A stretch of 39,846 nt of DNA, from assembly GCA_022844165.1 (NCBI GenBank), contig JALHMH010000040.1:1-39846 (forward strand), written 5' to 3'. The notes below the pieces were generated by a model, which saw nothing but the letters and a program-made list of their open reading frames with translations, was not told the DNA's origin and searched no databases. Of this stretch, positions 22,242-39,527 are shown in pieces. The position numbers were made by a program, and so were the translations under genes. The number at the start of each line of letters is the position of its first letter. The stretch's first letter is position 1. Source of the stretch: Lysobacterales bacterium. Its GTDB lineage: Bacteria > Pseudomonadota > Gammaproteobacteria > Xanthomonadales > SZUA-5.

Positions 22242-22521
22242 ATTTGTAGTTCCAAGTGATGGGCGGGACGCCACGAGTGATTCTGAGCGCGAGCCCTGAA
22301 TTGCTTCTGAATTCTTCTTGCGTCGTTTTCCAGGTTTAACTGCGATTGTGTGTCTCACGATCTGAGACGGGCCGGCTGGAGCCTGATGCGGTGTCTCAAA
22401 ACCAATCGGAATTTCCGCGTCTTTCGAGCCGAACGCTGCGGGCCGAAGTCCATCAGAAATTTCTTCCAGTGACTTTTGGGACACCACACCAGAGACCTGC
22501 CCACCGCGATCGGAGACCTAT

Positions 22522-22771: not shown

Positions 22772-22972
22772 CTCTAGCGAGGCTTCGCCTCAGACCGCCG
22801 AGCGTTGTTGGCTTCGCCAGACACCGTACTTGCCTAAACCCCCATTGAGCGCTGCGCGCTCAATCGCCCCCTTGTACTCAAGGGGGCTTCAACAGCCGAA
22901 GCCGCTTCGTAGAAAATTTGACTCATTTGTCGAGATCAGTCTCCGTCAAGGACTCTAGCGAGGCTTCGCTAG
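22772..22972. repeat. REP/MITE-like palindromic element bounded by 17-bp direct repeats
   Basis: CTCTAGCGAGGCTTCGC at 22772-22788 and 22953-22969; internal hairpins 22844-22864 (ATTGAGCGC/GCGCTCAAT), 22866-22887 (GCCCCCTTG/CAAGGGGGC) and 22897-22909. Confidence 0.6.
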
Positions 22973-24918: not shown

Positions 24919-24921
24919 CGT

Positions 24922-25506
24922 TCAACGCACGCGAAAATGGAAAGGGCCCAACTCGTCGGCAGCGCAGCGCACGGTCCATAAGTAGGTGCCGGCGGGCAGC
25001 GCGCCATCGAAAGCCGCGGTGCCTCCGCGTACGCCGTCGCTGCGCCAGACGCGTTCGCCCGTTGGGCGACGTACGTCGACACGGCAAATCGCGCCGGCTG
25101 GAACCATCCATCGAAACTCGTTTGGCGCGCCGCTAAGCTCGCTGCCGATCTGCGGGTGTAGCGCTCCGGCACTGCCGCGCAGCACCTCGTCGGCTGCTTG
25201 CGGTCGCATCACGGATACCACCCAACCCGCGCCAACCGCGAGCAGCAGGCTCGCGGCCACGGCCCACAGCGGAGAGATGCGTCCACGCCGGAGAATCACA
25301 GCAGCCGGCTCGCGTCCGGCCTGCAAGCCAACCTCGATTTGCGCTATCGCCGCGCAGCGCGTGCAGGTCGCCAGCGCCTGCAGCGTATCGGCGTCCCCAG
25401 CGCCGCGCATCGCGGCGGCGATGCCCTCGGCGCTGGGACAGCCTTCGCCACCGCGCGGGCAAGCCACTGCATGCTGCTGATAGGCCTTCCTCAAGGCATC
25501 ACTCAT
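24922..25506 (-). CDS. Putative anti-sigma factor (Cys-rich N-terminus, one TM, periplasmic beta domain)
   Basis: CPSAE...LATCTRC zinc-finger-like motif, TM LWAVAASLLLAVGAGWVV, then VLRG and a beta-rich C-domain; overlaps the ECF sigma stop (ATGAGTGA). Confidence 0.75.
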   Translation of the reverse strand: MSDALRKAYQQHAVACPRGGEGCPSAEGIAAAMRGAGDADTLQALATCTRCAAIAQIEVGLQAGREPAAVILRRGRISPLWAVAASLLLAVGAGWVVSVMRPQAADEVLRGSAGALHPQIGSELSGAPNEFRWMVPAGAICRVDVRRPTGERVWRSDGVRGGTAAFDGALPAGTYLWTVRCAADELGPFHFRVR

Positions 25507-25999
25507 AACTCACCCCACAACGCATCAAGCTGGCTTTGAGCTCATCTAATCCGCGATACACCAAATTGCGCACCGTCGCCTCGCTCAGGCCTTCCATGAC
25601 CGCAATTTGCGCCAAATCGAAGCCCTGCAAATGCAAGGCCACAGGGCGCTGCCGACGTTCTGGCAGTTGTGCCAACGCGCCGGCGATATGCGCGCCCAAC
25701 TCGGCAGACCGCGTTTGCGTATCGGCGTTGTCCGGAACGGAGTACCCGTCCGGCAACGGCTGCGGCGCGTGCCGTAATTTTCGAATGTGGTCCACAATCA
25801 CGCTCATCACCGCACGATGCAAATAAGACGGTGGATGGGCGATCGTATTCTCGCGTTCCAGAACACGCCACAGCTTAAGGCGCACTTCCTGCTCGATGTC
25901 ATCCGCATCCAGGCCCAGCGAGGGCGACACGCGCGAGCGCACCAGCGAGCGCAGGGGCTTGCAGAGATCTTTCAGCAGAGCATCGATGCGTCGCGTCAT
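25499..25999 (-). CDS. ECF-family RNA polymerase sigma factor
   Basis: Region 2 DADDIEQEVRLKLW...YLHRAVMSVIVDHIRK; region 4 LAQLPERRQ...QIAVMEGLSEATVRNLVYRG. Start is ATG 25999 or TTG 26035. Confidence 0.9.
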   Translation of the reverse strand: MTRRIDALLKDLCKPLRSLVRSRVSPSLGLDADDIEQEVRLKLWRVLERENTIAHPPSYLHRAVMSVIVDHIRKLRHAPQPLPDGYSVPDNADTQTRSAELGAHIAGALAQLPERRQRPVALHLQGFDLAQIAVMEGLSEATVRNLVYRGLDELKASLMRCGVSYE

Positions 26000-26038
26000 C
26001 CGAACATCAGACCATCCACAGGCAGCCGCAAGCAAGCC

Positions 26039-28792
26039 TCATTCGAAGCCATCCGCGAGCATCGCGCTGGGGCCAGTCTGCAGACTATGGAACCACTGCT
26101 CGAAGTTCAGGTTCGCGTACGCCTGCAAGTTGTTGCTGCGCTCAAGTTCGAATTGGATGACCGCGGCCAGTTCCGGCGAGCCGTTCTGTGCCCAGCCCTC
26201 CCAAACCGTGCGCGCGCTGGCAAGCATCTGCGGGCTGAGCACGTGGCTGCTGCCATCGCCGTTGGCGAAAGCGGTGAGTGCGGGCAACAGATCGGCGAAG
26301 GTGCGTTGCCTTGCCTCGAAATGTTCGGTGAAGCCGAACGTGGTCCCCAGAATCTCGGCCGCATGGCGATGGTACAAGTCGAAGTAGTAGCGTCCGGCAG
26401 CCGTGGCCTCGAAACGCCCATGCAGCCTCGCCAGTAGTGGCGGTTGCGCGCTGCCGCGCTCCGGGTCAAATTCAAGGCTGATGAGATTGCAGCGACGCAC
26501 CAATTGACAAACACAAAGCCAAAGCACGAACTGACTCGATCGGATATTGGTTGGCGCCAAGGGGCTGCCGACACTCGGTGTGCCGTATTGCGTGGCGATG
26601 GCCAGTGTTCCCTGGGCATCGACAAACGCCAGGCGCGTACTGCCAAACTGCGTGAACGCTAAATGCTGCCCTGGCACTGCGTTGCCGAGCGGTTCGGCTT
26701 GCCAGATATCGCCTCCGTCCGCTTGCGCCAGGCGGATTCGGCGTTCTCCGGCTTGATCGTAGGTAAATAACAAGCGCGGCTGCGCGCCGCCTCGTTGCAC
26801 ATGCCTGAGTTGGGCATCGCGCATTTGGCGCTCAGCAGAGGGCGAGATGATCTCGCCCGCAATCTGAGTCCAGGAGCCATTTACCCAAATGGCATAGTCC
26901 AGCCGATGGGTGCCGGAAAAAGAGACCGAATAGGCGATGGCCGGGCGGTCCAATTGCGCGACGTCCAATGCCACCACCTGCGCGCCGTAAATCGAAAGTC
27001 CCGCATCGTTCAGCGGCGCCAACAGCGTTTCCGTGAGCACACCTGAGGGCCAGTCGGCGTCGATGCGCAGTACCCGGATTCCGCTGGTCCCGTCGCCCGC
27101 CGGATCATGGCCGGCAACGAACAACGATCCAGGAAAGCCGGTCGCAGCAAGACGAACGCGCGTCAGGCCGTCCGCGGCGACGAGCCAACGCGGCGCGTTG
27201 GCCGCAAGCCCTTGCGTCCATATGCGCGAGTGGGCCCCGTGGCGCAGCAGGACAAAGGCCCGACCGTCCGGCCCCAGCGCGAGGTCGAAGTCATCAGCGA
27301 GCGGCCCGCCGAGCGCCTGGATACTCCAATCGGAGCCGGTCCAGAATGCATAGTGCACTTGCCCGTTCGCGCTTTTCAGCGCCAGATGTGGGCGATCCAG
27401 GGAATCGACGTCCAGCCTGGCATCGTCGACATCCAGAGCTGGCGGCAAGGGGCGCTCGCTGAAACCACCATCAACCACAGTCCACACGCTGCCGCTGCCG
27501 TTCGGTACATGCTGCGCATAAAAGATGGGTGCTCCAGAACTATCCTCGGTCAACGCCAGAACACTGTCGGCAGAAAGTCCACTCGGGCCTTGCCTGATCA
27601 CCCAAGGAGGCAACTCGCGCACCCACACCAGGTCTCGATGGTTGCTGAAATCCAGCGCCAGCGCATGCAGCTGGCCTTCGCTGTCATAAGCAACGTCATG
27701 CACCTTCGCGAGCGAATGGATCGCCAGCTCGGAAAACGTCGCGCCGGGTCTTTCGCGAAAGAGACGGTATCGCTGGTTAAGATCATTGAAGGTCAACGCC
27801 CATTGCTGACCGGGCCCGACGGCCAGCGCGTTGGGCGCGAGACCTTGCGCGGTGAGCGCAGTCAGGATCGGGGCGCATGATCCAGCGCAAACGAACTGTG
27901 TTGATCCAGCCACGCGCACCCGGCGCTGCACGATATGCGGCGACGGTGCGCCAATGCTTGGGGGCGGCCGGGCGATGACGATTGCGATCTCAGAACTGCC
28001 ATCGGCCCGCGTGGCGAAGTATTGCCATTGCAGACGATCGCCGTTGCCCGGTACGAAGGTCGCAATCGGTTGATCGGCAACTTGCGATCCCGCGATGCGC
28101 GCCCAACGCACCTGGTGCGAACTGGAATCGAGTTCAGCGTAGACCAATTCGGGGTGAGCCAGCGTGCCGATGGGTTGCACGGCAAACGCCGGTCGCGATG
28201 CTGTCGAGGTGACGCCAAACGGCGCTACAGCTGACCAGGTGCCGAGCGCTCGTTGCTGAACTCGCAGCACACCGACGCCATCGCTGCGCGCCGTATCGAT
28301 CCACGCTGCGATCGGCTCGCTTGCCGCGTTCATGGTCAGCGTGGGTGTCGCAACGTTGCCGACATCCAGCACATGCCGCACAGGTGCACCCGGAATGGCT
28401 TCGATGTGCACCAAGACATCGTCCGCCGTTCCTGCGCCATGCGGCTCGATCAGCAGCACATGCACCCGCCCGCTGGCATTGATAGCGATGCGCATATCGC
28501 GGGTACTGTCGCCGACAGTGCCGAGCATCTGCACCGTGCCGATCTTTTCGCGGCGCCAGGCCCAACCATCGTAGCGCCGCAGGAATAACTCCGCCGGGCG
28601 CACCTGGGTGCTATTCAGTGTTGCGGTGTCGATCAGCGCGACCACCGGATGATCGGTCTGCGGATTGATTGCCATCGCGGCGTAGACATCGCTCGATCCC
28701 AGAGACTCGACCATCTCATAACGCGCCGCAGTCGGCGTCTCGGGAAAGCTGATTGCCGATAGGGCGGCGGCGAGCCACAGGGCGACACTCAT
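26039..28792 (-). CDS. Large secreted beta-propeller-like protein with C-terminal LADGFE tail
   Basis: 917 aa from ATG 28792 (signal MSVALWLAAALSA); repeated blade-like units (DSEGQLHAL, DSLDRPHLA, GPDGRAFVL); helical C-domain GRYYFDLYHRHAAEI; ends AMLADGFE*. Confidence 0.78.
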   Translation of the reverse strand: MSVALWLAAALSAISFPETPTAARYEMVESLGSSDVYAAMAINPQTDHPVVALIDTATLNSTQVRPAELFLRRYDGWAWRREKIGTVQMLGTVGDSTRDMRIAINASGRVHVLLIEPHGAGTADDVLVHIEAIPGAPVRHVLDVGNVATPTLTMNAASEPIAAWIDTARSDGVGVLRVQQRALGTWSAVAPFGVTSTASRPAFAVQPIGTLAHPELVYAELDSSSHQVRWARIAGSQVADQPIATFVPGNGDRLQWQYFATRADGSSEIAIVIARPPPSIGAPSPHIVQRRVRVAGSTQFVCAGSCAPILTALTAQGLAPNALAVGPGQQWALTFNDLNQRYRLFRERPGATFSELAIHSLAKVHDVAYDSEGQLHALALDFSNHRDLVWVRELPPWVIRQGPSGLSADSVLALTEDSSGAPIFYAQHVPNGSGSVWTVVDGGFSERPLPPALDVDDARLDVDSLDRPHLALKSANGQVHYAFWTGSDWSIQALGGPLADDFDLALGPDGRAFVLLRHGAHSRIWTQGLAANAPRWLVAADGLTRVRLAATGFPGSLFVAGHDPAGDGTSGIRVLRIDADWPSGVLTETLLAPLNDAGLSIYGAQVVALDVAQLDRPAIAYSVSFSGTHRLDYAIWVNGSWTQIAGEIISPSAERQMRDAQLRHVQRGGAQPRLLFTYDQAGERRIRLAQADGGDIWQAEPLGNAVPGQHLAFTQFGSTRLAFVDAQGTLAIATQYGTPSVGSPLAPTNIRSSQFVLWLCVCQLVRRCNLISLEFDPERGSAQPPLLARLHGRFEATAAGRYYFDLYHRHAAEILGTTFGFTEHFEARQRTFADLLPALTAFANGDGSSHVLSPQMLASARTVWEGWAQNGSPELAAVIQFELERSNNLQAYANLNFEQWFHSLQTGPSAMLADGFE

Positions 28793-28917
28793 GACGGCGT
28801 CCGAAGCAATGCGTTGCTGGCCAGCCCACCAAGCTGGCAATTGCAGACAAAGAAAGCCGCCGGTACCGGTGCGCTCCACATCGGCAACAGCAACCATAGC
28901 CAGCGAAATCCGCACAT
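28789..28917 (-). CDS. Putative 42-aa secreted Cys-containing peptide, first gene of the ECF/CHAT operon
   Basis: MCGFRWLWLLLPMWSAPVPAAFFVCNCQLGGLASNALLRTPS; GGGAGA RBS; stop overlaps the next ATG (ATGA); ATG lies 30 nt after the putative ECF -10. Confidence 0.5.
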   Translation of the reverse strand: MCGFRWLWLLLPMWSAPVPAAFFVCNCQLGGLASNALLRTPS

Positions 28918-28947
28918 CGTTCTTTCTCCCGAGACCGTCAGGTACCA

Positions 28948-28975
28948 GACGAGCGAAATGCGCAGTTTTTCTCGC
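28948..28975 (-). promoter_or_regulatory. Putative ECF-sigma promoter (leftward operon)
   Basis: GCGAGAAAA-ACTGCGCATTTCGC-TCGTC on the minus strand; same architecture as 29672-29699. Confidence 0.6.
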
Positions 28976-29225
28976 GCCATCGCAGCGCCCTCGCAATGCG
29001 CGTGCGCGCGCCGAATGCACGAACAGCATCGCGGCGTTCGCCGTGCACTCAGACGATTCGAGTCAGGCTTTGCAGGTGCGTGCCGGCGACGTCCAATTCG
29101 ATCCGAAGGTGCGAAGTTCGGCCAAGAACGCGCCCGCCAGCGCAGCTTACGGAGCTCGGCTCCGTGCGACTCGCCCCCGCCAGATCGTGCCCACCTCGTC
29201 GTTCGGAAGTTCGTCTACAAAGTGC

Positions 29226-29256
29226 ATTCCGATCTTGCTCAACACAGGATCGGAAT
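29226..29256. terminator. Stem-loop downstream of the DUF4349-like remnant
   Basis: ATTCCGATC...GATCGGAAT inverted repeat, 20 nt past the 29277 stop; no U-tract. Confidence 0.35.
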
Positions 29257-29276
29257 CGACACACCATTCGGCGCGA

Positions 29277-29627
29277 TCAGCCCCGGCGCGCGCCGGTCGC
29301 CCATCGCCAGAGCAATCGCCACAACAGCGCCAGCGGGAACAACAGGAACAGGAAGGGAAGCGCATAGGCAGCTGCCTCAATGGCTTCGGCGGCACCGTCG
29401 AGGAACTGATCAGCCGCATCGCCGATGGCTTCGGCCAATGCCGCCGAGCGCGACGGCGGCGGCTTGATGGCGTTGAATTCCAAGGTCAGCAGATTGGTCT
29501 CCAAACGCAGCGCGTGCTGCGCAGCCATGCGTTCCGCTGCTGCTCTTTCGGCCTCTAACGTCGCCAGCTCGCGGGCCAGCTGCAGGTGGTCGGCGACGCT
29601 GGTCGTCCTTGTCGACTGCCCGATCAC
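29277..29627 (-). pseudogene. 5'-truncated DUF4349-like gene remnant
   Basis: Coiled-coil SVADHLQLARELATLE, then LLTLEF strand and TM LPFLFLLFPLALLW, resembling only the C-terminal part of DUF4349 proteins; in-frame TAA two codons above the GTG; no signal peptide or RBS. Confidence 0.55.
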
Positions 29628-29671
29628 GAACGGTTAACTGCCGATTGGGCCGCGCTTCGAATCACCGTGAG

Positions 29672-29699
29672 GTGAGAAAATTTGTGGTCAGGCGTCGTC
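29672..29699 (+). promoter_or_regulatory. Putative ECF-sigma promoter (rightward gene)
   Basis: GTGAGAAAA-TTTGTGGTCAGGCG-TCGTC, 29 nt upstream of ATG 29729. Confidence 0.6.
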
Positions 29700-29728
29700 G
29701 ATAACACCCATTGACGGAGAACTGCGAT

Positions 29729-32410
29729 ATGCGAAGCTTGGCAATGGCAACACTGGCAGGAGCGCTTTTGCTGCTCTTCGCAGCTGCGCCCGACGCGTCG
29801 GCAGCATGGCCGCCGCCCACGCCGGCGCAGATCAGCTTGAGCGTGCGCAACACGAGTGCGGTCGACCGCAACGAGCTGGTGCGCGGCGGCGTACCGTTGC
29901 CGCGAGCGCTGTCGCTGACTCACACCGGCAGCTTGGCGATTGTCGACCAAAACGGCGTTGCGGTGCCTGCTGCCTTTCAAGTGCTGGCGCGTTGGAATGC
30001 GCCGCGTAACGACAACAGTGCGCCAATACAGTGGTTGTTGGTGCGGTTCTTGGCCTCCATGCCCGCAGGAGGCACGCGCAGTTTTACGCTACGCACCGAC
30101 GGCAGCATCGTCAATCCAGCCCCGCAAGTGGTCGTCACCGTGGCGCCGGATGGGAGCGGCCTGCGCGTTGACACCGGAATCGCGAGGTTCGTTGTGGGTA
30201 GCGATTTATCGCGCGTCTTCGATCGCATCGAGCGTCCTATCCTCACCCCACTGGCGAGCAGTCAATTCAGCTCGACGATCAATGGGAATGCCGCGAACGG
30301 ATTCGGTCAGGCGCGACGCGTGATCGTCGAACACGCTGATGCACTCAGTGCCACGATCATTGTCGAAGGTGTATATGGCCACGCGAATGTCGGCAACGGC
30401 GGCATCAGTGGCGGCCGCCGTCTCGAGTTTGCCGCCGGTTCAGGTGCGGTCAGCGTTCGCGAATGGATCGATTGGGAGGGCCAACGCTGCGCCGTTGAGC
30501 AGCTCGACTGCGGCAACGGACTGAACGCCGTTTCACTGGATCGTTGGCGCGTGCAGTTGCTGCCCACGCTGGGCGCAGGAACAACATTGACGATGCAGGC
30601 CAGCGAAGCGGCCCCGCCAGCGAGCGTTTCTGTTGCGCCGGGGGATATCGCAATGCTGCGCCAATTGCGGCGCAGCGATCGACAGCAGCCGCAACGCTTC
30701 GAACTGGCGCTGCCGGGCCAACCACTGCGCAGCGGCGCGCGCGCGGATCGAGCGGTGGCGTTGCTCTCCGGCAGCGCCGGCGCATTGGGTGTGACCATCG
30801 GTGGTATGGCCGACTACGAGCCTCAGGCGCTGCGTTTACTCGCAAATGGCGCACTCGCTCTCGATCTGGCCGACGATGCCGTTTGGCTGGCGGCGCGCCA
30901 GGGCGCCTTCGCTACCTATCGCGTCGGCGCTTATGCGCCCGGCACATCGTTCGCGGCAGCGGGTGCCGACCTTTGGCCGGCACTCAATGCACCGTTGACA
31001 GCGATGCCGACCGCCGAGTGGATTGCCGCATCGCGCGCGACGGATGAGTTTCCGATCGGGACCTTGCCGCCGGCGTTGGCCGGATTCGATACCGCTCTGG
31101 ACGACTTGATCGACCGCACCATCGAGTTGCGCCGCGACCGTGGTTTGGAGGGTTTGACGACCTTCGGCTTATATCCGCGGAACTGGGGCAATCCGGTGCT
31201 CAGCGACGAGATCGATTGTGGTCCAGGCCAGGACCCGACGCCGGGCAACGATTGGGATGATCCATTCTGGTGCGCCACCTGGACCGACTATCACAACACA
31301 ACGGCGATGGCAGTCATCGCTGCCTGGCGCCACGCAGATCCGGCGCCGATCCATCACCTGGCTCGCCCGGCGGCGTTGCGATCCTTGCACACGCAAATGC
31401 TGCGTTGTGCACCGAGTGACGGCTATTTCTACTGCGGGCAGTTTCCGACTGGCTACGGCGGTTACCGAGTCGATTTCAACAGTTCGCATGCCTATGTCGA
31501 AAACCTGATCCTCTACTATTGGTTGAGTGGCGATCGCACCGTGATCGAGCGCTTGCAGCGCGGCGCAAACACCATGCGCGGCTACCTATGTCCGGGTCGC
31601 GGCAGTACACCGCCCGGGCCGATCTGCAGTCCGACGACGCCGATCAGCGACGAATTTGCCGGCGTCAATGATCGTGTTGCGAGTCAGTTCTATCAGATCT
31701 TCCGGTTTGTCGGCCTTGCCTCCGATGACGCGAGTTTCCTCGACGACTGGCGAAGTAATACGGCACGATTCCTGACGCAGAACTTTGCGCTGGTGCAACA
31801 GGGTGGTCAGCTGCTCGGATTTACGGAACCTTCGGGCGCTGGCAGCACGACCATCATCGGTGGTCCGGGCAGCTACTATTCGACGCAACTGTGGATGGCA
31901 TCGATCTACGACTTCAACCTATTGCATCGACTGCAAATCGACACGCAGGACGCACCCCTGGGGTTGCCGGCGGTCACGCCCAGCGCCGCCCAACAGGGTT
32001 TTGCCCGTGCGCTGCGTGCGATCGGGCAGACGCCGCCTGGCAACGGCAGCGCGGCGGGAACGTGGCCAAACACTGTGCGCTTTACGTTCAGCGGCGCTCG
32101 CATTGGCGGCAACCTCACCGCGCTGGAACCTGGGTGGGTTCCAAATTCGATGCCACAGCCATGTTTCGACGATTGTTTGTACGACACGGGCAAGTCGCCG
32201 CTGAGCGCAGTATTCGCCCGCGCAGCCGACGAAACTGGCGATCCGCAACTGCGCGCTTCAGCGTTGGACTTTGCTTTGTTGGCTCTGCAATCGATTGCCA
32301 CGACCCCGCAACCGATGAGTAAATCCAGCGGTGAATTGTTCGGACGACTGACAGCAGCGGTCGCGCGATTGGCCGCGGACGAATCCGTATTCGGTGATGG
32401 CTTTGAGTAG
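29729..32410 (+). CDS. Secreted RIFT-barrel / PcRGLX-YetA (exo-rhamnogalacturonan lyase)-like protein with VFGDGFE tail
   Basis: 893 aa, GGAGA RBS, signal peptide; N-terminal LSVRNTSAVDRNELVRGGVPLP...FQVLARW...IQWLLVRF; beta-sandwich, then helical toroid (SSHAYVENLILYYWLSGD); ends SVFGDGFE*. Confidence 0.72.
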   Translation: MRSLAMATLAGALLLLFAAAPDASAAWPPPTPAQISLSVRNTSAVDRNELVRGGVPLPRALSLTHTGSLAIVDQNGVAVPAAFQVLARWNAPRNDNSAPIQWLLVRFLASMPAGGTRSFTLRTDGSIVNPAPQVVVTVAPDGSGLRVDTGIARFVVGSDLSRVFDRIERPILTPLASSQFSSTINGNAANGFGQARRVIVEHADALSATIIVEGVYGHANVGNGGISGGRRLEFAAGSGAVSVREWIDWEGQRCAVEQLDCGNGLNAVSLDRWRVQLLPTLGAGTTLTMQASEAAPPASVSVAPGDIAMLRQLRRSDRQQPQRFELALPGQPLRSGARADRAVALLSGSAGALGVTIGGMADYEPQALRLLANGALALDLADDAVWLAARQGAFATYRVGAYAPGTSFAAAGADLWPALNAPLTAMPTAEWIAASRATDEFPIGTLPPALAGFDTALDDLIDRTIELRRDRGLEGLTTFGLYPRNWGNPVLSDEIDCGPGQDPTPGNDWDDPFWCATWTDYHNTTAMAVIAAWRHADPAPIHHLARPAALRSLHTQMLRCAPSDGYFYCGQFPTGYGGYRVDFNSSHAYVENLILYYWLSGDRTVIERLQRGANTMRGYLCPGRGSTPPGPICSPTTPISDEFAGVNDRVASQFYQIFRFVGLASDDASFLDDWRSNTARFLTQNFALVQQGGQLLGFTEPSGAGSTTIIGGPGSYYSTQLWMASIYDFNLLHRLQIDTQDAPLGLPAVTPSAAQQGFARALRAIGQTPPGNGSAAGTWPNTVRFTFSGARIGGNLTALEPGWVPNSMPQPCFDDCLYDTGKSPLSAVFARAADETGDPQLRASALDFALLALQSIATTPQPMSKSSGELFGRLTAAVARLAADESVFGDGFE

Positions 32411-32493
32411 CGCAAAAGTGCCTGTCACCTGATCCGTTCCTTATGTTCGCGTCGCGCTGCGCCAGTACGTGCGCGCGTCGTTGACAGCTCCAA

Positions 32494-32518
32494 GACAGCC
32501 CGGTGGCGCCGGGCTGTC
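32494..32518. terminator. Hairpin between convergent genes (probable bidirectional terminator)
   Basis: GACAGCCCGG-TGGCG-CCGGGCTGTC, perfect 10-bp stem, 15 nt after the mscL stop. Confidence 0.6.
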
Positions 32519-32533
32519 CGATCCGAGCTTAGG

Positions 32534-32950
32534 CTAGGACTTCTTTAACAGATCGCGAATTTCACGCAGCAACAGCACGTCGTCCGGTGTCGCTGGTGCA
32601 GGTGCCGGCGCTTCCTCGGCTTTTTTCTTGACTCGATTCATGGCCTTGATCACCAGGAACAGGGCCCAGGCAACGATCACGAACTGGATCATGGCATTGA
32701 TGAATTCGCCATAGCCGATCGCGACCTCAGGCGTGACCACCTTTTCGGCTTCCATCACCGCGGACTGGATGACGAATTTTTTGTCGGCGAAATCAATGCC
32801 ACCGGTCAACAAACCAATCGGCGGCATCAAGACTTTTTCCACCAGCACACTGACGATTTTGCCGAATGCACCACCAATGATGACGCCGACCGCAAGGTCG
32901 ACCACGTTGCCACGCATCGCAAAATCGCGAAACTCGCTCACAATGCTCAT
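32534..32950 (-). CDS. mscL: Large-conductance mechanosensitive channel
   Basis: EFRDFAMRGNVVDLAVGVIIGGAFGKIV ... YGEFI ... LLREIRDLLK. Confidence 0.98.
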   Translation of the reverse strand: MSIVSEFRDFAMRGNVVDLAVGVIIGGAFGKIVSVLVEKVLMPPIGLLTGGIDFADKKFVIQSAVMEAEKVVTPEVAIGYGEFINAMIQFVIVAWALFLVIKAMNRVKKKAEEAPAPAPATPDDVLLLREIRDLLKKS

Positions 32951-33062
32951 CGTTTGACTCCCCAATTGGCTACGAAAGACGGGATCGCCCTTCGGTGGGC
33001 GAATCTAACGTATCGCCGATCCCGCAGATGGGTTTGACACAGGAATTTCAAATCGCGGACAC

Positions 33063-33089
33063 AAAAAAGGCCGCATCGAGCGGCCCTTT
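33063..33089 (-). terminator. Intrinsic terminator of ykgO
   Basis: Minus strand GGCCGC-TCGAT-GCGGCC-TTTTTT, about 20 nt after the stop. Confidence 0.8.
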
Positions 33090-33108
33090 CCGGCGTAGCA
33101 GCAAACGA

Positions 33109-33234
33109 TCAGCGCTGGCGAGCTTTGAAACGCGGGTTGCTCTTGCAGATAACGAACACTTTGCCGCGGCGACGTACAACTTTGCAATCGCGATGGCGCG
33201 ACTTTGCAGACTTCAGAGACGAGAGTACCTTCAT
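33109..33234 (-). CDS. ykgO: 50S ribosomal protein L36, type B
   Basis: [41 protein letters not shown] (41 aa); the track start at 33432 is an overshoot. Confidence 0.97.
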
Positions 33235-33378
33235 GACGCACCATCCGTGATGTGAAAACTTCCGAGCCGGCGATTCTAGTCGTGATCGACAGCCGACGGC
33301 AAGTCGCCACTGCGCTACGATCCTCGCGACAGCTTGCCTTCGTTTAGACTTCTCGCTAAAGCAGCATTTGAGTGGGCC

Positions 33379-34128
33379 ATGCCAGTACTCCTGATTCTCT
33401 CTTTGATCTTGCAGTTCGTCTGTCTGGTGCACATGGTTCGCTCAAGGCGGCCGTACTGGTGGGCTTTTGTCATCATGCTGGGTTCCTTCATGGGGGTTGC
33501 GGTGTATGCGTTCACGCAAATCCTGCCAGATCTGCAAAGTGATCCCCGGGCCAGACGCGCGGCCGTAGGGGCACTGAAAAAGATCGACCCCACGCGGGAC
33601 CTGCGGCGTTTGCGCGACGAGCTATCGCGGGCCGATACCGTGATGAACAAAATGAATCTGGGTGCCGAGTTTCTTGCACTCGGCGAAGCCGCGGAAGCCG
33701 AGGCGATTTTCAAAGGGTGTCTGACAGGTCTGCACGCGCAGGCGCCGGACATCCTTCTGGCTTTGGCGCAAGCGCAATTTGTGCAGGGGAAGGCGGGCGA
33801 GACGCACGCAACCCTCACTCGATTGATCGAGCACAACCCCGAGTTCAAGTCCGCAGATGGGCACTTGCTATTCGCTCGCGCCTTGCAAGCGCTGGGCCGC
33901 GACGACGAGGCGTTGGCAGAATTTGCGGTGTTGCAGGAAAGCTACCCCGGCGAAGAAGCCCGCGTGCGTTATGCGCAGCTGTTGATTGCCCACCATCAAG
34001 TCGCCGACGCCAAAGCCGTTCTGCAGAAAACATTGGAGCGCGTGCGCGTGGCGCCAAAGTACTACCAGCGTGCGCAGCGCCAGTGGGCGGACGAAGCCAA
34101 AGCACTCAATGACTCGCTCCGTGCGTAG
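33379..34128 (+). CDS. Membrane-anchored TPR protein (COG4700-like)
   Basis: Two N-terminal TMs ([14 protein letters not shown]), TPRs, GHLLFARAL and [10 protein letters not shown] motifs. Confidence 0.8.
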
Positions 34129-34331
34129 TGTTTCGGAGGGGCGAGGTGAGTTGGTCCGCCTGGGTGTTTTGCCGGGTGACGAGCGGCGTGCCTTCGCCCG
34201 CCGCTGATAGTCGGCATTGCGCACAGCGCAATTCGGTGTTGCGACCGGCCACGCTAGCCGTATTGAGTGCTCGTCCCTAGATTCGGTTCCGCGCAGCGTT
34301 CGCTGCACCCTCGAATCTACAAAGGTGAGTC

Positions 34332-34814
34332 ATGAACAAAAGGATCCAAGTGATCGCTATCGCATTGGCGCTGGCCCTGGGCAGTGCGGCCACGTCCGCT
34401 ATCGCCTTCGATGCCTCGTCCAGGGCTGAGATCAACGTGAGCAGCGGAGGCGTCATCGTTTCGGGATACGACGTGGTGGCATATCACGCCGGCAAGGCAG
34501 AGAAGGGCAGCGCCCGCTTCTCGGCTGAATACAATGGCGCGATTTACTATTTCGCCAGCGCGACCAACCGCGATGCCTTCCAGCAGGCGCCACAAAAATA
34601 TGCGCCGGCCTATGGCGGATTCTGTGCGATGGGCGTTGCGCTTGGCCAGAAGTTCGATGTCGATCCGACCCAGTTCAAAGTCGTCGATGGCGTGCTGTAC
34701 CTGAATAAGGACCCAGAGGTCGCCGTCCTCTGGTCCAAGGCCATCCCCAAACATATTGGCGACGCGGATCAGCAGTGGCCGGCCATTAAGACCCAGGCGC
34801 CTGCGGATTTGTAA
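34332..34814 (+). CDS. YHS domain-containing exported protein
   Basis: Signal peptide; GYDVVAY, YYFASATNRDAF, KYAPAYGGFCAMG, VDGVLYLN. Confidence 0.9.
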   Translation: MNKRIQVIAIALALALGSAATSAIAFDASSRAEINVSSGGVIVSGYDVVAYHAGKAEKGSARFSAEYNGAIYYFASATNRDAFQQAPQKYAPAYGGFCAMGVALGQKFDVDPTQFKVVDGVLYLNKDPEVAVLWSKAIPKHIGDADQQWPAIKTQAPADL

Positions 34815-34880
34815 GAACCATCGCGGTCGCGCGCACCACGGCGGCCCGATCGCTCGCTGTCGGGCGCTTGAGGGCTGATT

Positions 34881-36725
34881 TCATCGACAGCCGTACAAGC
34901 GCCCCGTGGCCGCAACCGTTGCGGCAAACTCGGTCGGAATTCCTGCGGGGGGCGAGAGCCCGCCGATCTGGCAAACGCCCTCCGCATTTTCCAAGTACGC
35001 AGAGAAGAAAGTGGCGAGGTTCTCACCGATGAAAGTACGGACGCCGGGCGTGCCGGTATTGGGGCTGCCGCCCATTTCAAGATGGTCTTGCTGATCGATG
35101 ATGATCTGGATGCGATCCTGAGCGTTGGTCAGGCGACTGAAGGGTTGCAGGCGCCAACCGGTGCTGATGAAGGCCCCGGTGCCGCTGCTGTCGAGTTCGT
35201 CGCGCCCCAGCAGGATGAAGGTCGGCACGGTAACGGTCAGCCAGGTGTTGTCGTTTGGTCCGTTGTCGAAGGCCAGGAACTCTTCGCCCACGCCTTGCGG
35301 CGAAATGGGTGCCATCGCCACCACGCGCGGGTCGCGGAACACGCCGTACGGATAGGTTGCGCCGCCCAGCGCCATGCTGGTGTAGGCGCCCGCCGAATGT
35401 CCGGTATGACCCACCCGTTGCGTGTCTACCCGCCCGATGAAGCCAGCCGGCAGCGGCAACGCGCCGGCCGCGATACGGTCGATCAGGAAGCTGACGTCCG
35501 CAGGACGATCGAGGCGATGCTGCTCCAGCGTCCCAGAGTTGCGATGGCCGACGACAACAGCGACGAATCCCGCCCGCGCAAGCGGCTCGGCGATATGCGT
35601 GAAGTTGGTGAGTTCGACGCCCGGATTGTTTGGATTGGTGCCCAGTCCACCATGGCTGATCAGCACCAGCTTGCGTGTCCCGATGGCATTCAATGGCGCG
35701 AAGATCCGAGCGCCCACTTCCCGATTGCCGCGCGCGGTGTCGTTCAATTCGACTGCCCGGCTGGCGAATTCGAACGGCGGCCGATTGCTTGGCTCGAAGC
35801 CGGATGCGAAGTAGCGATCGACGCCCAATCGCGCGTCCTTCAGGCGCAGCCAAATTTCTTCCGCGATCTCGATGTCCCGGTTCTGGCGGCCGGCCAGCGG
35901 ATATTGGCGCGACGGCGGCGAGTGTCCGCCGTCGATTGCCACCAGCGCGGTCAAGTCCGCATTCGCCGGGCAGGTGAAATCATGCACCTCCACGGTCGAC
36001 TCATCGGTGGGATCCAGATCCGGAAGGGTGCTGATGCTGGGCGTGGTGTCACAGCCGGCCCACGCCAAGAATCGATCACGCGCGGTTGCGAAAGTCTCGT
36101 TGCGCGCGCTGCCCGTGAAAGGGATCAAGGGATCGAGGGTGCCAACCTGCATCACGATGGTCGATGGGTTGGCCGGAAACCGCGCGCATTCCTGTGCGGT
36201 ATCGACCGGCGGCAGCGCGATCACGCCGCCGTGCCCTGCGTAGCGTGCCGACTGCTCCAGTGCCAGCCGGTAGCTCATCAGCCCGCCGTTGGATGTGCCC
36301 GCGGTATAGACTCGCGAAGTGTCGACGTCATAACGCCCTTCGACCTCGCGCAACATCTGCTCCAGAAAGCCGACATCATCGAATGTCGAGGGTGTCCCTG
36401 AATACGCAAACTGTCCACAGTCGTTCCAGTTGCCCGCCACCGAATCGGGATAAAGAACCAAAATGCCCTCGCGGTCGGCAATCCGACGCCAGTGTCCCGA
36501 TGGCCGATTGAGCGCCGCATGGCCTTGCGCCGTTTCGGTGCCGCCGTGCAGGACGACCACGGTCGGCACCGGCCCGGCGGGCAACACGCCGGGTCGGTAC
36601 TCCAGGTAACGGCGCATCAGCCCGTCGTGCATTAAGCTGCGCTCAATCAACATGCCTTGAGCAGAAACGTCGCCGAAGAGGCACAGCGCCGCCAGGCCTT
36701 GCAAAACGCGCAATCGCAATCGCAT
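34881..36725 (-). CDS. Secreted double alpha/beta-hydrolase (PHB-depolymerase/LpqC-like esterase fused to a second hydrolase)
   Basis: Domain 1 VVVLHGG, DDVGFL, GTSNGG, GTLDP, GGH; linker DRYFASGFE; domain 2 ISHG, GHSAG, DHLEM. Confidence 0.85.
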   Translation of the reverse strand: MRLRLRVLQGLAALCLFGDVSAQGMLIERSLMHDGLMRRYLEYRPGVLPAGPVPTVVVLHGGTETAQGHAALNRPSGHWRRIADREGILVLYPDSVAGNWNDCGQFAYSGTPSTFDDVGFLEQMLREVEGRYDVDTSRVYTAGTSNGGLMSYRLALEQSARYAGHGGVIALPPVDTAQECARFPANPSTIVMQVGTLDPLIPFTGSARNETFATARDRFLAWAGCDTTPSISTLPDLDPTDESTVEVHDFTCPANADLTALVAIDGGHSPPSRQYPLAGRQNRDIEIAEEIWLRLKDARLGVDRYFASGFEPSNRPPFEFASRAVELNDTARGNREVGARIFAPLNAIGTRKLVLISHGGLGTNPNNPGVELTNFTHIAEPLARAGFVAVVVGHRNSGTLEQHRLDRPADVSFLIDRIAAGALPLPAGFIGRVDTQRVGHTGHSAGAYTSMALGGATYPYGVFRDPRVVAMAPISPQGVGEEFLAFDNGPNDNTWLTVTVPTFILLGRDELDSSGTGAFISTGWRLQPFSRLTNAQDRIQIIIDQQDHLEMGGSPNTGTPGVRTFIGENLATFFSAYLENAEGVCQIGGLSPPAGIPTEFAATVAATGRLYGCR

Positions 36726-36743
36726 GCCTACGCTCCAGTCGGG

Positions 36744-38093
36744 TTATTGGGAAGTGCATCGACTGAACGCGCCGTTGGCGGCTGACTTTCGTCTGCGCTC
36801 GGTGGGGATGCCGGTGGGCGGAAGCAGCGCGCCGATGTCGCAGGCACCGCCGCTTTGTTGCAGATGCACCTGGAAGAAGCGCCGCAGGTTCTCGCCGATG
36901 AAGTTACGCACAGACGGCGTACCCTGGTTCGGCGACCCGCCCATCTCGAGATGGTCCTGGCCATCGATGATCACTTCTACTCGATCCAGCGAGTTGTTCA
37001 TTCGGTTAAAGGGTTGCAGGCGCCAACCGCTGGAAATGAATGCGCCGGTGCCTGAGAAATCGATCTCGTCCCGGCCGATCATCAACGCGACTGGGACCGG
37101 GATGTTTGCCCAGGTGTGATCATCGCCGCCGTTGTCGAACGCCAGGAACTCCTCGCCCACGCCCTGCGGCGAAATCGGCGCGATCGCTGCGACGCGTGGA
37201 TCGCGGAATTGGCCGTACGGGTACCGTCCACCGCCGAGCGCCATCGAGGTATACGCGCCGGCCGAGTGCCCGGCATGGCCGACATTCCTGGTGTCGATGC
37301 TGCCGACGAATCCGGCCGGTAGCGTCAAGCGCCCTTGTTCGATCTGGTCGATCAGGAAGGACACATCGCGCGGCCGATCCAATCGGTGCTGATCGAGCGT
37401 TCCCGAACTGCGATGGCCGACAACCACAGCCACCATGCCGGCGCGAGCCAGCGGCTCGGCGATGTGGGTGAAGTTGGTCAGTTCCACGCCGGCGCTGCTG
37501 GGATTGGTGCCCAGGCCGCCGTGACTGATGAGCACCAACTTGCGAACGCCACGCACACCGACCGGCGCGAACACGCGCGCGCCCACTTCGCGCCCATTGC
37601 GGCTGCTGTCGTTCAGTTCGACGGCTGATGTAGCGATCTCAAAGTTCGGTGTGCCGATGCAGGAAGAACCGGAGATTCGCGTCAGGCGCACCAATCGCAG
37701 CGTTCCATTGCCGAGCGTCGATGTGTAATCCAGATCGAGATGATCGCAGTCCTGAAATCGCGCGGTCGCGGTCGCAAAGGGCGTGCTCACTGGCCGATTG
37801 TTGGGCGCCGCCGCAACGAAGCGAGGCCCGGTTACGCGCTGAAACGTCAGCGAAGTCGCCTCGCCGGTCGCTGGCGCGGTCGCCACCAGCCATAGCGTTG
37901 CACCGGCATTGTCGAACGTGTACCAGGTGACCAGCAAGCTCTGCCGACCTTCGATGTCTACCACCTCAACGACCAAGCCTTGACCGTCGTTGGCCGGGTC
38001 GTACCAGGCGCCGGATAGCGCCGGTTCGACCGGCAGGGCGTTCGCGAAGGAGTGCCAGATGAGCAACAGCGTTGCCAACAAAACAGCGCGCAT
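36744..38093 (-). CDS. Secreted alpha/beta-hydrolase with N-terminal SGAWYDP beta-module
   Basis: Start ATG 38093 gives signal MRAVLLATLLLIWHSFANA; LSGAWYDPANDGQG module, then a hydrolase domain (GHSAG) paralogous to the neighbour. Confidence 0.82.
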   Translation of the reverse strand: MRAVLLATLLLIWHSFANALPVEPALSGAWYDPANDGQGLVVEVVDIEGRQSLLVTWYTFDNAGATLWLVATAPATGEATSLTFQRVTGPRFVAAAPNNRPVSTPFATATARFQDCDHLDLDYTSTLGNGTLRLVRLTRISGSSCIGTPNFEIATSAVELNDSSRNGREVGARVFAPVGVRGVRKLVLISHGGLGTNPSSAGVELTNFTHIAEPLARAGMVAVVVGHRSSGTLDQHRLDRPRDVSFLIDQIEQGRLTLPAGFVGSIDTRNVGHAGHSAGAYTSMALGGGRYPYGQFRDPRVAAIAPISPQGVGEEFLAFDNGGDDHTWANIPVPVALMIGRDEIDFSGTGAFISSGWRLQPFNRMNNSLDRVEVIIDGQDHLEMGGSPNQGTPSVRNFIGENLRRFFQVHLQQSGGACDIGALLPPTGIPTERRRKSAANGAFSRCTSQ

Positions 38094-38235
38094 TCCACAC
38101 CTTCTACCACTGGACATGGGCTGCTCAACGCAGTTGAGCGACTGGCGTTGACGCGACGAACTACTGGCATCCGGCTGAAAGTACGCTTCATGTGGAGAGC
38201 TCTTAAATGTCGTCGAAAGGGCCTTCGGATCAAGC

Positions 38236-39396
38236 TCAGTTGCAGCCCTCAAAGCGATCGTCAAAGACACTTTGCGCAGGAAGCGCCAAGAGCGCGGTAG
38301 CGGCTTCGAGCACGGCAGCGTCGAACGTTGCACTTTCTTCCACGGCATTGATGGCAATGACGACGCCTTTGTTCAGGCGCGGCTGGATGGCAACATAGAC
38401 ATAAAACGTGCCGGCGGAACCCGCGAAGCTGCTGGTGCTTTCGCCGTTGATCAGGTCAACGAACCAAGCCGGTGAAAGCTGCAGACTGGACTGCGGTGTA
38501 TTGAGAAATTGGTAGGTCTGTGGTGTCAGAATTTGGCATTGCCCGCGTAACCCTCGCAGATGCAGTCGCACGGTACGCACGTATTCGTGGACGGTCATCG
38601 TGATGTTACCAGCGGGATTTAAAAACTGCGGGAACTGAAACTCAGGCGCATTCGGGTCGTTGGGAACGAATTCGCCCTCCTCGAAGGTGTGGCCCCAGGG
38701 TTGGGTCAGATTCACCGCTGCGGCGCCGAAAGCCGGCCACTGAAAACGCGGCGGGATTTGCAGCGGCGTCAGTAGTCGATTCGTCAACAGCAATTCGTAG
38801 GTCTGATTCGCAATACGCTCGGCAATCGCTGCCGCGATCGTCAGACCTCCATTCGAATACTGCGCGTCCGCTCCCGGCGCAATATCCGGCGTTTGTTGCA
38901 ACGCCCAGGCGGCGAATTGCTCCCGTTGTTGGCGCGGGGTTCCGGTAAATGAAGGTAGCGCCAAAATGGCGTCCAGATCCAGCACGCCAACGATGCCGGC
39001 CCGATGGGTCAGCAGATCCAGCAAGGTTTTTTTGCGATACGCCGGATGCATGCTCGCAGCCAGGTTTGGCAGCAGATCGGTGAGCGGTGCATTCCAGCTC
39101 AGCTGACCTGCCTCGACCATGGTGGCGATGGTCACCGAGGTCATCGCCTTTTGCAGAGAGCCCAGGTGGAACTGATCGTCTGTTGTGATAGCCGTCGCTG
39201 TGCCTTGCTTGCGAACGCCCGCGGCACCCAGGTCGATTTCGGTGGTGCCGAATGTAGCGACTACCACCCCCGGTGCACCCGTGATCGCCTTCAGCGCCTG
39301 TGCTTGTTGATCGAGTTGGGGCGACGCATGAGCGCCTGGCGCGAACCATGCCAGACAACAAGCCAGACGGGCAACAAGGATGAGAATCGGTTTCAT
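38236..39396 (-). CDS. Secreted serine hydrolase (beta-lactamase/AmpC-like family)
   Basis: SxxK FHLGSLQK, LLTHRAG, YxN QYSN, PAG; start ATG 39396 gives a signal peptide; ends SVFDDRFEGCN*. Confidence 0.88.
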   Translation of the reverse strand: MKPILILVARLACCLAWFAPGAHASPQLDQQAQALKAITGAPGVVVATFGTTEIDLGAAGVRKQGTATAITTDDQFHLGSLQKAMTSVTIATMVEAGQLSWNAPLTDLLPNLAASMHPAYRKKTLLDLLTHRAGIVGVLDLDAILALPSFTGTPRQQREQFAAWALQQTPDIAPGADAQYSNGGLTIAAAIAERIANQTYELLLTNRLLTPLQIPPRFQWPAFGAAAVNLTQPWGHTFEEGEFVPNDPNAPEFQFPQFLNPAGNITMTVHEYVRTVRLHLRGLRGQCQILTPQTYQFLNTPQSSLQLSPAWFVDLINGESTSSFAGSAGTFYVYVAIQPRLNKGVVIAINAVEESATFDAAVLEAATALLALPAQSVFDDRFEGCN

Positions 39397-39527
39397 GACA
39401 CCAACTTCCGCTGTGAAGGAGGTCGGAGCGTGACCGAGCAAAGACGGCGTTGCGTCCACGCCGACTGGGTCGGACGCGCACGCCGTCCTAGTTCATCGGC
39501 TGGATGGTCTGAGATCTTTGGTCGATG

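Follow-up and report, generated by a model that had tools for sequence, protein, structure and literature searches.

Why should several exported proteins of different kinds, encoded on a single bacterial contig, end in the same few residues? This question is raised by a stretch of 39,846 nucleotides from a Lysobacterales bacterium (contig JALHMH010000040.1 of assembly GCA_022844165.1), referred to below as the window, in which a short motif typically closing with Gly-Phe-Glu, termed here the GFE tail, forms the end of three exported proteins and stands at a domain junction in one further protein. The window corresponds to contig C40 of a 4.68-Mb genome (G000; 59 contigs, ~62% G+C), and the closest named relatives of one window gene are found in records labelled Lysobacterales and Rhodanobacteraceae. 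The tag exists, is selected as protein, marks exported proteins of many folds and tracks a subtype of the type II secretion component GspC over several hundred genomes. It is considered possible, with a probability of about 0.45, that the GFE heptapeptide is an export tag which recruits proteins to a second type II secretion system via GspC. Contigs of G000, genomes, families and genera are cited below by C, G, f and g numbers.

The tail in the window

The tails, the proteins that carry them and one tail-less paralogue are located as follows.

26039..29029, minus strand: tail protein 1, a 996-amino-acid (aa) open reading frame (ORF) ending in ...SAMLADGFE-stop, no Pfam or NCBIfam family; its true start is uncertain and possibly internal MSVALWLAAALSA
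26039..26065, minus strand: tail AMLADGFE-stop of this ORF, a variant in which Leu replaces Phe at position -6
29711..32410, plus strand: tail protein 2, 899 aa, with a signal peptide MRSLAMATLAGALLLLFAAAPDASA and the ending ...ESVFGDGFE-stop, no Pfam or NCBIfam family
32384..32410, plus strand: tail SVFGDGFE-stop, the C-terminus of the 899-aa protein
38236..39459, minus strand: tail protein 3, a 407-aa serine hydrolase with a signal peptide MKPILILVARLACCLAWFAPGAHA, ending in ...QSVFDDRFEGCN-stop
38236..38271, minus strand: tail SVFDDRFEGCN-stop, degenerate and extended (Arg for Gly, then three more residues)
34881..36725, minus strand: two-module exported protein, 614 aa, the N-terminal module being a polyhydroxyalkanoate (PHA)-depolymerase-type esterase (residues 37-292)
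35793..35819, minus strand: internal motif DRYFASGFE, residues 303-311 of the 614-aa protein, followed by PSNRPP
36744..38357, minus strand: 537-aa exported paralogue of the second module, without the tail, ending in ...AFSRCTSQ

Translation of the ORFs placed all four stretches where a preliminary description of the window had located them, and no further window ORF in the gene set carries this ending. The same description had assigned signal peptides to all four proteins, which is clear for three of them and uncertain, along with the start codon, for the 996-aa ORF. It had also recognized four different folds. Two of these were confirmed, namely the beta-lactamase fold of the 407-aa protein (PF00144, E 1e-34) and the esterase module of the 614-aa protein (NF050058, E 5.5e-33, below the cut-off of the model). 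The former lies far under all NCBIfam beta-lactamase cut-offs, its NCBIfam scan having matched 45 families, the best 25 of which are of the beta-lactamase fold and all below cut-off. The lyase-like assignment is a good lead, the 899-aa protein lying near PcRGLX/GH127-like clusters by language-model features (score 0.95), while the propeller of the 996-aa protein remains a weak one (BNR_4, score 0.76, by the same kind of features).

Residues 316-613 of the 614-aa protein share 70% identity with residues 237-534 of the adjoining 537-aa protein, and the second module delimited in this way puts the internal DRYFASGFE exactly at the module junction, where it may represent the former C-terminus of the esterase, retained after a gene fusion. 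Two orthologues of the 899-aa protein end in ...RIFADGFEVTP and ...RLFDNGFEAP, that is, in the tail plus two to three extra residues, and the linker preceding the tail differs between orthologues while the tail itself is retained.

A protein-level tag across the genome

The genome-wide survey used a crude gene set in which 3420 ORFs with a minimum length of 80 aa account for 90% of the genome; 3402 of these ORFs end in a stop codon. The pattern [IVLY]?[FL].[DNS][GSR]F[ED].{0,5}$, applied to ORF C-termini, matched 73 of the 3402, with 57 ending exactly on the motif and 16 carrying one to five extra residues; distances of 6-10 residues from the C-terminus were empty. The consensus reads [LVIM]-F-[A/R/x]-[N/D]-G-F-E. 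'GFE' is the end of 61 proteins, against ~0.9 expected from 363 occurrences in 1.42 million residues, and the control endings 'GFD' and 'EFG' close zero and one protein, respectively. At the DNA level, F-x-[ND]-G-F-E-stop has 43 matches in the genome and its reversed control none, so that the tail cannot be put down to chance.

Among 58 exact tails, synonymous codons are used at every position: Gly is encoded by GGC (25), GGT (12), GGA (10) and GGG (9), Phe by TTC (42) and TTT (16), and Glu by GAG (36) and GAA (22), and the stop codons are TGA (26), TAG (18) and TAA (14). The DNA downstream is unrelated, and the varying codons together with these flanks rule out a repeated DNA element. At position -4 the exact tails have 36 Asn, 14 Asp and 8 Ser, and the last residue is Glu (or Asp).

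A wider first position in the pattern gave 77 tail proteins to be compared with 3325 others. Enrichment among exported proteins, which the preliminary description had implied, was borne out, a signal peptide being called by a crude predictor in 68/77 tail proteins vs 1004/3325 others; the predictor over-calls, so it is the contrast between the two sets that counts, and on inspection most signal peptides of the tail proteins are plainly classical. With the tail removed, the 77 proteins fall into 45 similarity clusters. Pfam types among sampled tail proteins include sortilin-like propellers, a BD-FAE esterase, S8 subtilases, beta-helix and cadherin-like proteins, Exo_endo_phos with DUF11, SpoIID and a cytochrome c peroxidase-like protein. 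The reported lack of a transmembrane (TM) helix was also verified: 57 of the 73 proteins end at ...FE-stop and the other 16 only one to five residues later, so no TM segment can follow the motif. The tail-bearing ends of the window proteins gave no match to any Pfam or NCBIfam model. The tail is thus a protein-level C-terminal tag on heterogeneous Sec-exported proteins and is selected as protein.

Internal copies of [FL]x[DNS]GFE are also in excess (20 occurrences vs 4.5 expected), many of them preceding Pro/Gly/Thr-rich linkers. In two proteins the motif lies near the N-terminus, right after the signal peptide (FSNGFE at residue 27 and LSNGFE at residue 43; C17:80251-81213 and C37:10323-12179).

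Taxonomic range of the tail

With the DNA pattern, tail matches were found in 36/39 relatives of the genome, and in a class-wide gammaproteobacterial sample (301 genomes at least 90% complete) genomes outside the order Lysobacterales had 0-2 matches each. In the sampled genomes the exact tail is confined to this order. Across 159 genomes of the order, tail matches drop sharply by family:

f1: tails in 13/13 genomes, 13-56 per genome
f3: tails in 7/7 genomes
f4: tails in 21/21 genomes, 6-70 per genome
f5: tails in 2/2 genomes
f6: tails in 2/2 genomes
f9: tails in 10/10 genomes
f10: tails in 20/20 genomes
f2: tails in 1/21 genomes
f7: tails in 9/21 genomes, genus g14 0/11
f8: tails in 10/21 genomes, mostly 1-2 per genome
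f12: tails in 7/20 genomes

These counts, taken with the position of the tail in its carriers, bear on the notion that the tail is no signal at all and is instead a common linker, a domain-end element or the remnant of a longer domain, inherited passively. The internal copies at domain boundaries would suit such an origin, as would the string 'F-x-D-x-F-E', which we take to resemble the first strand of some jelly-roll domains. It is nevertheless very improbable, because most tails end at the stop codon with nothing at 6-10 residues from the end, because the tail follows unrelated folds and is kept by orthologues while the preceding linker changes, and because the count per genome drops to zero in whole lineages, which is the behaviour of a system rather than of a structural quirk.

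The f12 genome G612, with 24 matches, has seven tail-encoding ends at C1:1104760-1125739 with an identical 21-base tail sequence (F-I-D-G-F-E-stop); they lie on one strand at ~2.7 kb spacing with one larger gap of ~7.4 kb, which looks like a tandem array of paralogues.

Two type II secretion systems

Three secretins are encoded by the genome, one in PilMNOPQ, one in an Xps-type cluster and one paired with a PDZ-type GspC. The Xps-type cluster is compact (C3:210351-221733), running from E to M and then D, plus a helix-type XpsC-like ORF. The second, Gsp-type system consists of a gspC and gspD pair (C16:22858-26033) with matching GspE and GspF genes on other contigs (C7:64554-66029 and C6:18779-20035). 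Its genes are thus scattered over at least four contigs here, while several relatives have gspC-D-E(-F) together.

The GspC of G000 (305 aa, C16:25002-26033) matches T2SSC (PF11356) with E 3e-19 and, weakly, PDZ models at residues 244-298 (E 1e-4). It possesses the N-terminal TM segment, HR domain (PF11356) and C-terminal PDZ of a GspC, adjoins a GspD secretin with an N0 domain, and is homologous to OutC (6hcg, E 2.7e-17) and to the PDZ domains of PulC (5hj1, E 1.6e-7) and EpsC. The gsp locus was read in eight further genomes, in four of which gspC, gspD and gspE are all among the ORF calls. The order rho-trx-helicase-gspC-gspD-gspE occurs in G405 and G345, and gspC-gspD-gspE without nearby rho/trx in G031; in G434 gspC is merged with gspD in one ORF, and in G026 no gspE match follows gspD. 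The gspC genes of G028, G025 and G033 were missed by the ORF calls and then recovered from those loci. The f7 gspC stands at the same rho-trx-helicase-gspC-D-E locus.

Covariation of tail counts with GspC

In the discovery set, the same 159 genomes, the T2SSC profile was compared with tail matches. Positive genomes number 13/13 in f1, 7/7 in f3, 20/21 in f4, 2/2 in f5, 2/2 in f6, 9/10 in f9 and 20/20 in f10. In f2, G434 is both the only genome with a strong T2SSC match and the only one with tails, and in f12 the six T2SSC-positive genomes are six of the seven with tail matches. T2SSC was found in 0/21 genomes of f8 and in 21/21 of the tail-poor f7. The discovery set therefore divides as follows:

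GspC present, outside f7: 81 genomes, none with zero tails, 72 with at least five, median 19
GspC absent: 57 genomes, 44 with zero tails, four with at least five
GspC present, f7: 21 genomes, 12 with zero tails, maximum five

Two follow-up sets, sampled once the GspC hypothesis had been stated, comprised 61 f2 genomes (43 of them new) and 151 f12 genomes from 28 genera (131 of them new). In the f2 set, with one genome per genus, ten genomes have tails (39, 26, 21, 21, 19, 17, 8, 6, 2 and 1), and each of these belongs to the group of 14 in which T2SSC is matched at E <= 1e-21; tails are missing from the remaining 47 genomes, nine of which have weak matches of 1e-7 to 1e-12. In the f12 set, T2SSC was matched in 38/38 genomes with at least two tails, 37 of them over the cut-off and the other being a 680-contig assembly, and of 106 genomes without a T2SSC match 105 have zero tails and one has a single tail. 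The relationship holds even inside the genus g306, where five T2SSC-positive genomes have 2, 9, 14, 12 and 12 tails and four negative ones, which at 3.7-5.7 Mb are not smaller than the positives, have none. Genus g395 has weaker T2SSC matches in 7/7 genomes and is essentially tail-free. The predicted association between tail and GspC held in both follow-up sets.

The ligand-binding strand of GspC

Lineages that possess GspC yet have no tails differ in the ligand-binding strand of the PDZ domain. This strand was classified in 54 GspC sequences, chosen with tail status known and including all 14 strong f2 sequences and 10/21 of f7. In 32 of them an aliphatic residue follows the conserved Gly of the strand ('G-V-R-L-S') with normal spacing, and the genomes concerned have tails in 32/32 cases and at least five in 27/32. 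An aromatic residue occupies this position in 18, combined in 14 of them with the classical Pro ('G-[YF]-x-x-x-P', as in PulC); these come from f7, g395, the weak f2 type and f6, the f7 sequences showing an additional six-residue deletion before the strand, and their genomes have zero tails in 13/18 cases and a maximum of five. The four f2 genomes with a strong GspC and zero tails share a one-residue deletion just past the strand. For the aromatic and indel types combined, 17/22 genomes have zero tails and none has over five. The Thr of 'D-x-V-T-A-V-N-G', a position that we presume from PDZ structures to face ligand residue -3 (which the conserved Asn/Asp would occupy here), is replaced in three genomes with few tails, G507, G516 and G032, and also in the tail-rich G340.

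Proposed mechanism

Since the association held in two follow-up sets and the PDZ strand co-varies with it, the aliphatic-type GspC PDZ of the second type II system is newly proposed here as the candidate reader of the tail. The defined form of the putative export tag is [L/V/I/M]-[F/L]-x-[N/D/S]-G-F-E, 0-5 residues from the C-terminus. Sec would carry tagged proteins over the inner membrane and folding would take place in the periplasm, after which they would be recruited to the Gsp-type system, distinct from Xps, with the tail probably inserted as an additional beta-strand in the PDZ groove. The signal peptides of the 68/77 tail proteins are as expected of type II substrates, whose folding in the periplasm is presumed. 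From comparative sequence data we infer that the association between tail and GspC reflects physical binding, and that binding would cause secretion. A predicted complex of the GspC PDZ (residues 196-305) with the C-terminal 35 residues of the 899-aa protein gave a score of 0.02 (mark 0.32, controls absent), which speaks neither for nor against binding. The preliminary description had thought of secretion or of docking to a surface scaffold, perhaps through strand donation; none of the results indicates a scaffold, and the comparative data lead instead to a secretion step at the PDZ-type GspC.

Other candidate readers and a possible processing site

Phylogenetic profiling for a co-occurring receptor, suggested at the outset, yielded the PDZ-type GspC, while four other candidates failed; CHAT, Peptidase_C13 and a PDZ-hydrolase were profiled on the 159 genomes and a two-PDZ protein on a five-genome panel. 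The two-PDZ periplasmic protein (C26:19721-20860) lacks a full-length counterpart in G031 and G026, which are rich in tails, and has one in the tail-free G028. The protein combining PDZ, alpha/beta-hydrolase and FG-GAP (C2:105078-107567) is sporadic (32/159 genomes). CHAT is lacking in many tail-rich genomes (found in 1/6 in genus g11 of f4, 9/20 in f10, 0/2 in f6), yet occurs in 19/21 genomes of the tail-poor f8. Peptidase_C13 occurs in 0/7 genomes of f3, 1/20 of f10 and 0/2 of f6, yet in 20/20 tail-poor genomes of f12. Its representative here is a 516-aa protein (C17:65075-66625; L009:502-2052) with N-terminal hydrophobic segments and a C-terminal legumain-like Peptidase_C13 domain (E 6e-25), and the family is patchy across the order and does not track the tail.

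The latter two candidates are pertinent to the idea that the tail is a processing site, at which a clan-CD peptidase (legumain-, caspase- or CHAT-like) or another peptidase would cut after Asn/Asp, free G-F-E and perhaps ligate the protein to an envelope acceptor, as sortases, PorU and plant asparaginyl ligases do. The Asn, Asp or Ser at position -4, followed by Gly and a hydrophobic residue, makes a pattern which we take to resemble asparaginyl-endopeptidase ligase sites; moreover, an exported TPR+CHAT protein adjoins a tail gene in the window, and the genome encodes the Peptidase_C13-like membrane protein. The distributions just given tell against it, with CHAT lacking in many tail-rich genomes and Peptidase_C13 absent from f3 and f6, nearly so from f10 and present in all 20 tail-poor f12 genomes, and no recurrent peptidase lies beside the tail genes, either around the 77 here or around the six of a small 2.4-Mb genome. 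Processing of this kind is therefore regarded as improbable.

Points weighing against recruitment by GspC

Several observations weigh against recruitment by GspC, and some of them favour another account, in which the tail serves for addressing or docking and is recognized by a factor other than GspC (a receptor in the envelope, a chaperone, or an anchor to the surface or to vesicles that acts once export is complete), the cargo merely travelling by the Gsp route and being lost together with the machine. We consider this account doubtful, while giving it serious weight.

Family f8 supplies the main counter-evidence. GspC was looked for in 21 of 60 f8 genomes and a T2SSC match was obtained in none (0/21), and 9 of the 60 have 5-12 tail matches, as might be expected if the reader were not GspC. 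G430, G029 and G392 have no match to the G000 GspC protein or to the GspC PDZ profile, and these three as well as G455 have no orthologue of the Gsp-type secretin. About ten f8 tails read in G430, G029 and G392 belong to genuine exported-looking proteins of 259-952 aa. The f8 genomes G667, G668, G683 and G688, with 7-12 tails, stand outside the 21 searched for GspC. There was no support for the f8 tails having been acquired horizontally in recent times from relatives of the present genome, the identity of the f8 tail proteins to proteins of this genome being at most 38%. Outside f8, G030 (24 matches) and G447 (6), both fragmented assemblies, are without a detectable GspC, and in f7, where the PDZ is of the other type, 9/21 genomes nonetheless have 1-5 tails.

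The form of the tail raises a second difficulty. The extended tails (16/73, and both orthologues of the 899-aa protein), the internal copies and the final Glu misfit classical PDZ recognition of a free C-terminal carboxylate. Owing to the Glu at position 0 and the extended tails, the claim that the tail is a canonical PDZ ligand was lowered, and the claim that it is read by the GspC PDZ was not. A reader other than GspC would accommodate more easily both the tolerance of one to five extra residues and the excess of internal copies at domain junctions.

The comparative pattern has its own weakness, as the genomes are kin and hence not independent, and each PDZ subtype is bound to particular clades. 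The pattern therefore comes down to roughly four or five separate losses or changes (in f2; in f12, the inside of g306 included; in f8; in f7; and in an f2 subclade). The sortilin-like cargo family, furthermore, is wholly absent from four tail-free genomes, as if cargo sets rather than tails had been lost; for that reason route and cargo may have been lost jointly with no direct reading involved, which could reflect a common lifestyle or cargo route.

A reader other than GspC, on the other hand, leaves unexplained the changed PDZ strand in tail-free lineages that do have GspC (17/22 with zero tails). There is also no recurrent neighbour or receptor around the 77 tail genes here and no common neighbour around the six of the 2.4-Mb genome, and the four other candidates failed the profile test.

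Neighbouring genes

Downstream of tail protein 1, the window contains a regulatory locus:

22969..26035, minus strand: downstream context of tail protein 1, with extracytoplasmic-function (ECF) sigma, anti-sigma-like and TPR+CHAT genes
25499-26035, minus strand: ECF sigma factor, the 996-aa ORF lying upstream on the same strand
24922-25506, minus strand: anti-sigma-like protein, 194 aa
22969-24918, minus strand: exported TPR+CHAT protein

The recurrent neighbours of the 77 tail genes are likewise regulators (ECF sigma factors and Ser/Thr kinases), not envelope enzymes. Within three genes of a tail gene lie 8 of the 20 members of an ECF-sigma family and 15 of the 47 members of a family of ~980-aa proteins; two ECF sigmas were confirmed to be PF07638 and three of the ~980-aa proteins to be Pkinase, TPR being present as well in two of the three. 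The arrangement hints at a dedicated sigma/kinase switch for every cargo gene or small group of cargo genes (loci: window 22969-29029, minus strand; C8:112202-115147, C9:51303-54260, C3:25335-28747 and C8:27146-27727). A family of ~350-400-aa proteins with 13 near-identical members starting VDYEHRK... also recurs near tail genes (for example C3:14384-15580, C28:58625-59668, C3:489-1565 and C1:256080-257219) and is probably a mobile-element or repetitive extragenic palindrome (REP)-associated, transposase-like family.

The C-terminal module of ~300 residues common to the 614-aa and 537-aa proteins (window 34881-38357, minus strand) belongs to no known family and has a serine-hydrolase-like GHSAGAY motif, and the N-terminal domain of the 537-aa protein resembles, by eye, the protein at 21219-22487.

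Relation to known systems

The GFE tail is reminiscent of the tripartite signals (LPXTG/sortase, PEP-CTERM/exosortase, GlyGly-CTERM/rhombosortase and MYXO-CTERM/myxosortase), in that dozens of unrelated exported proteins carry one lineage-specific short C-terminal tag. GlyGly-CTERM and MYXO-CTERM cargo are also described, in the available excerpts of that literature, as exiting through type II secretion. Unlike all of these, IPTL-CTERM included, the GFE tail has neither a TM helix nor a basic cluster after the motif, and no sortase-like enzyme co-occurs with it. An NCBIfam scan at E <= 1 returned zero families for both canonical tail proteins, so that no curated model represents the tail.

C-terminal ligands are read by other periplasmic PDZ proteins, DegS recognizing the Y-x-F-COOH of outer-membrane proteins and Prc/Tsp non-polar tails; these ligands have a hydrophobic last residue and a free carboxylate, and they set off proteolysis or stress signalling. 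What they have in common with the present proposal is that a periplasmic PDZ reads the last few residues of an exported protein. The GFE tail differs in its final Glu, in allowing short extensions and in its proposed role, which is to drive export. The classical PDZ ligand classes I-III, with a hydrophobic position 0, likewise do not cover a tail with Glu.

The tag of the type IX secretion system (T9SS) is found on many large secreted enzymes and adhesins, and in Bacteroidota it is carried by BNR propellers ending in ...GRGVW and by beta-helices. It is likewise a C-terminal export tag on the same domain types, but, compared with the 7-9 residues here, it consists of a folded domain some 70-100 residues long, which PorU cleaves, and it belongs to another phylum and another machine. 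The T9SS domain PF18962/TIGR04183 was not matched by Pfam or NCBIfam in the window or in the sampled tail proteins, and 45 unrelated clusters lie upstream of the tail. Type I substrates have no N-terminal signal peptide, unlike most tail proteins (68/77). Nor is the tail an outer-membrane beta-signal, its last residue being Glu/Asp instead of aromatic and its carriers soluble enzymes and propellers.

The nearest relative is substrate selection by the GspC PDZ, as for EpsC and VesB of Vibrio cholerae and for OutC and the PelI Fn3 loop of Dickeya, where the C-terminal PDZ of GspC decides the secretion of some Sec-exported folded substrates; OutC and PulC are homologous in sequence to the GspC considered here. 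Signals known so far consist of folded domains or loops, found in one or a few substrates, in contrast to a linear seven-residue tail on ~70 substrates per genome, for which binding is proposed from sequence, and the ligand-binding strand is aliphatic in place of the classical G-Y-R-L-x-P. According to the accessible portions of one report (PMC12369372), the EpsC PDZ is necessary for VesB secretion only, the C-terminal Ig-fold of VesB carries a graftable PDZ-dependent signal, and in the view of its authors no linear universal type II signal is known. Xanthomonas XpsC, as depicted in the accessible part of another report (PMC11981180), has the HR domain and a single helix in place of the PDZ, with which the absence of tails from most f2 genera fits. 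A preprint on Dyella IssA (10.1101/2024.05.07.592856) describes a type II-secreted subtilase and an Xps-type cluster from gspE to gspD, and its accessible part does not mention C-termini.

No description of the tail was found in the literature by motif-string and topic searches (supplements excluded). The earlier statement that no machinery had been characterised thus stands for the searchable literature, although a concrete candidate, the PDZ-type GspC, is now available.

Significance

The GFE tail is a real, abundant and order-specific C-terminal tag on exported proteins. A bolder formulation, which is advanced tentatively and seems somewhat short of an even chance, is that it constitutes the first linear, transplantable type II secretion signal, read by a dedicated GspC PDZ subtype and directing ~2% of the proteome, or about 40-70 enzymes and adhesins in each genome, through a second secretin, and that it would have arisen once in Lysobacterales, tail and reader having been repeatedly lost together. 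If the link with GspC is indirect, the tail is still an uncatalogued and very abundant sorting label, and the profile data narrow the place of its reader. How type II systems choose their substrates is a long-standing question, which a linear tag would turn into simple experiments. If recruitment by GspC is true, sequence could be used to predict which proteins are secreted by a large group of bacteria associated with soil, water and plants, and the tail could serve as a small export tag for biotechnology.

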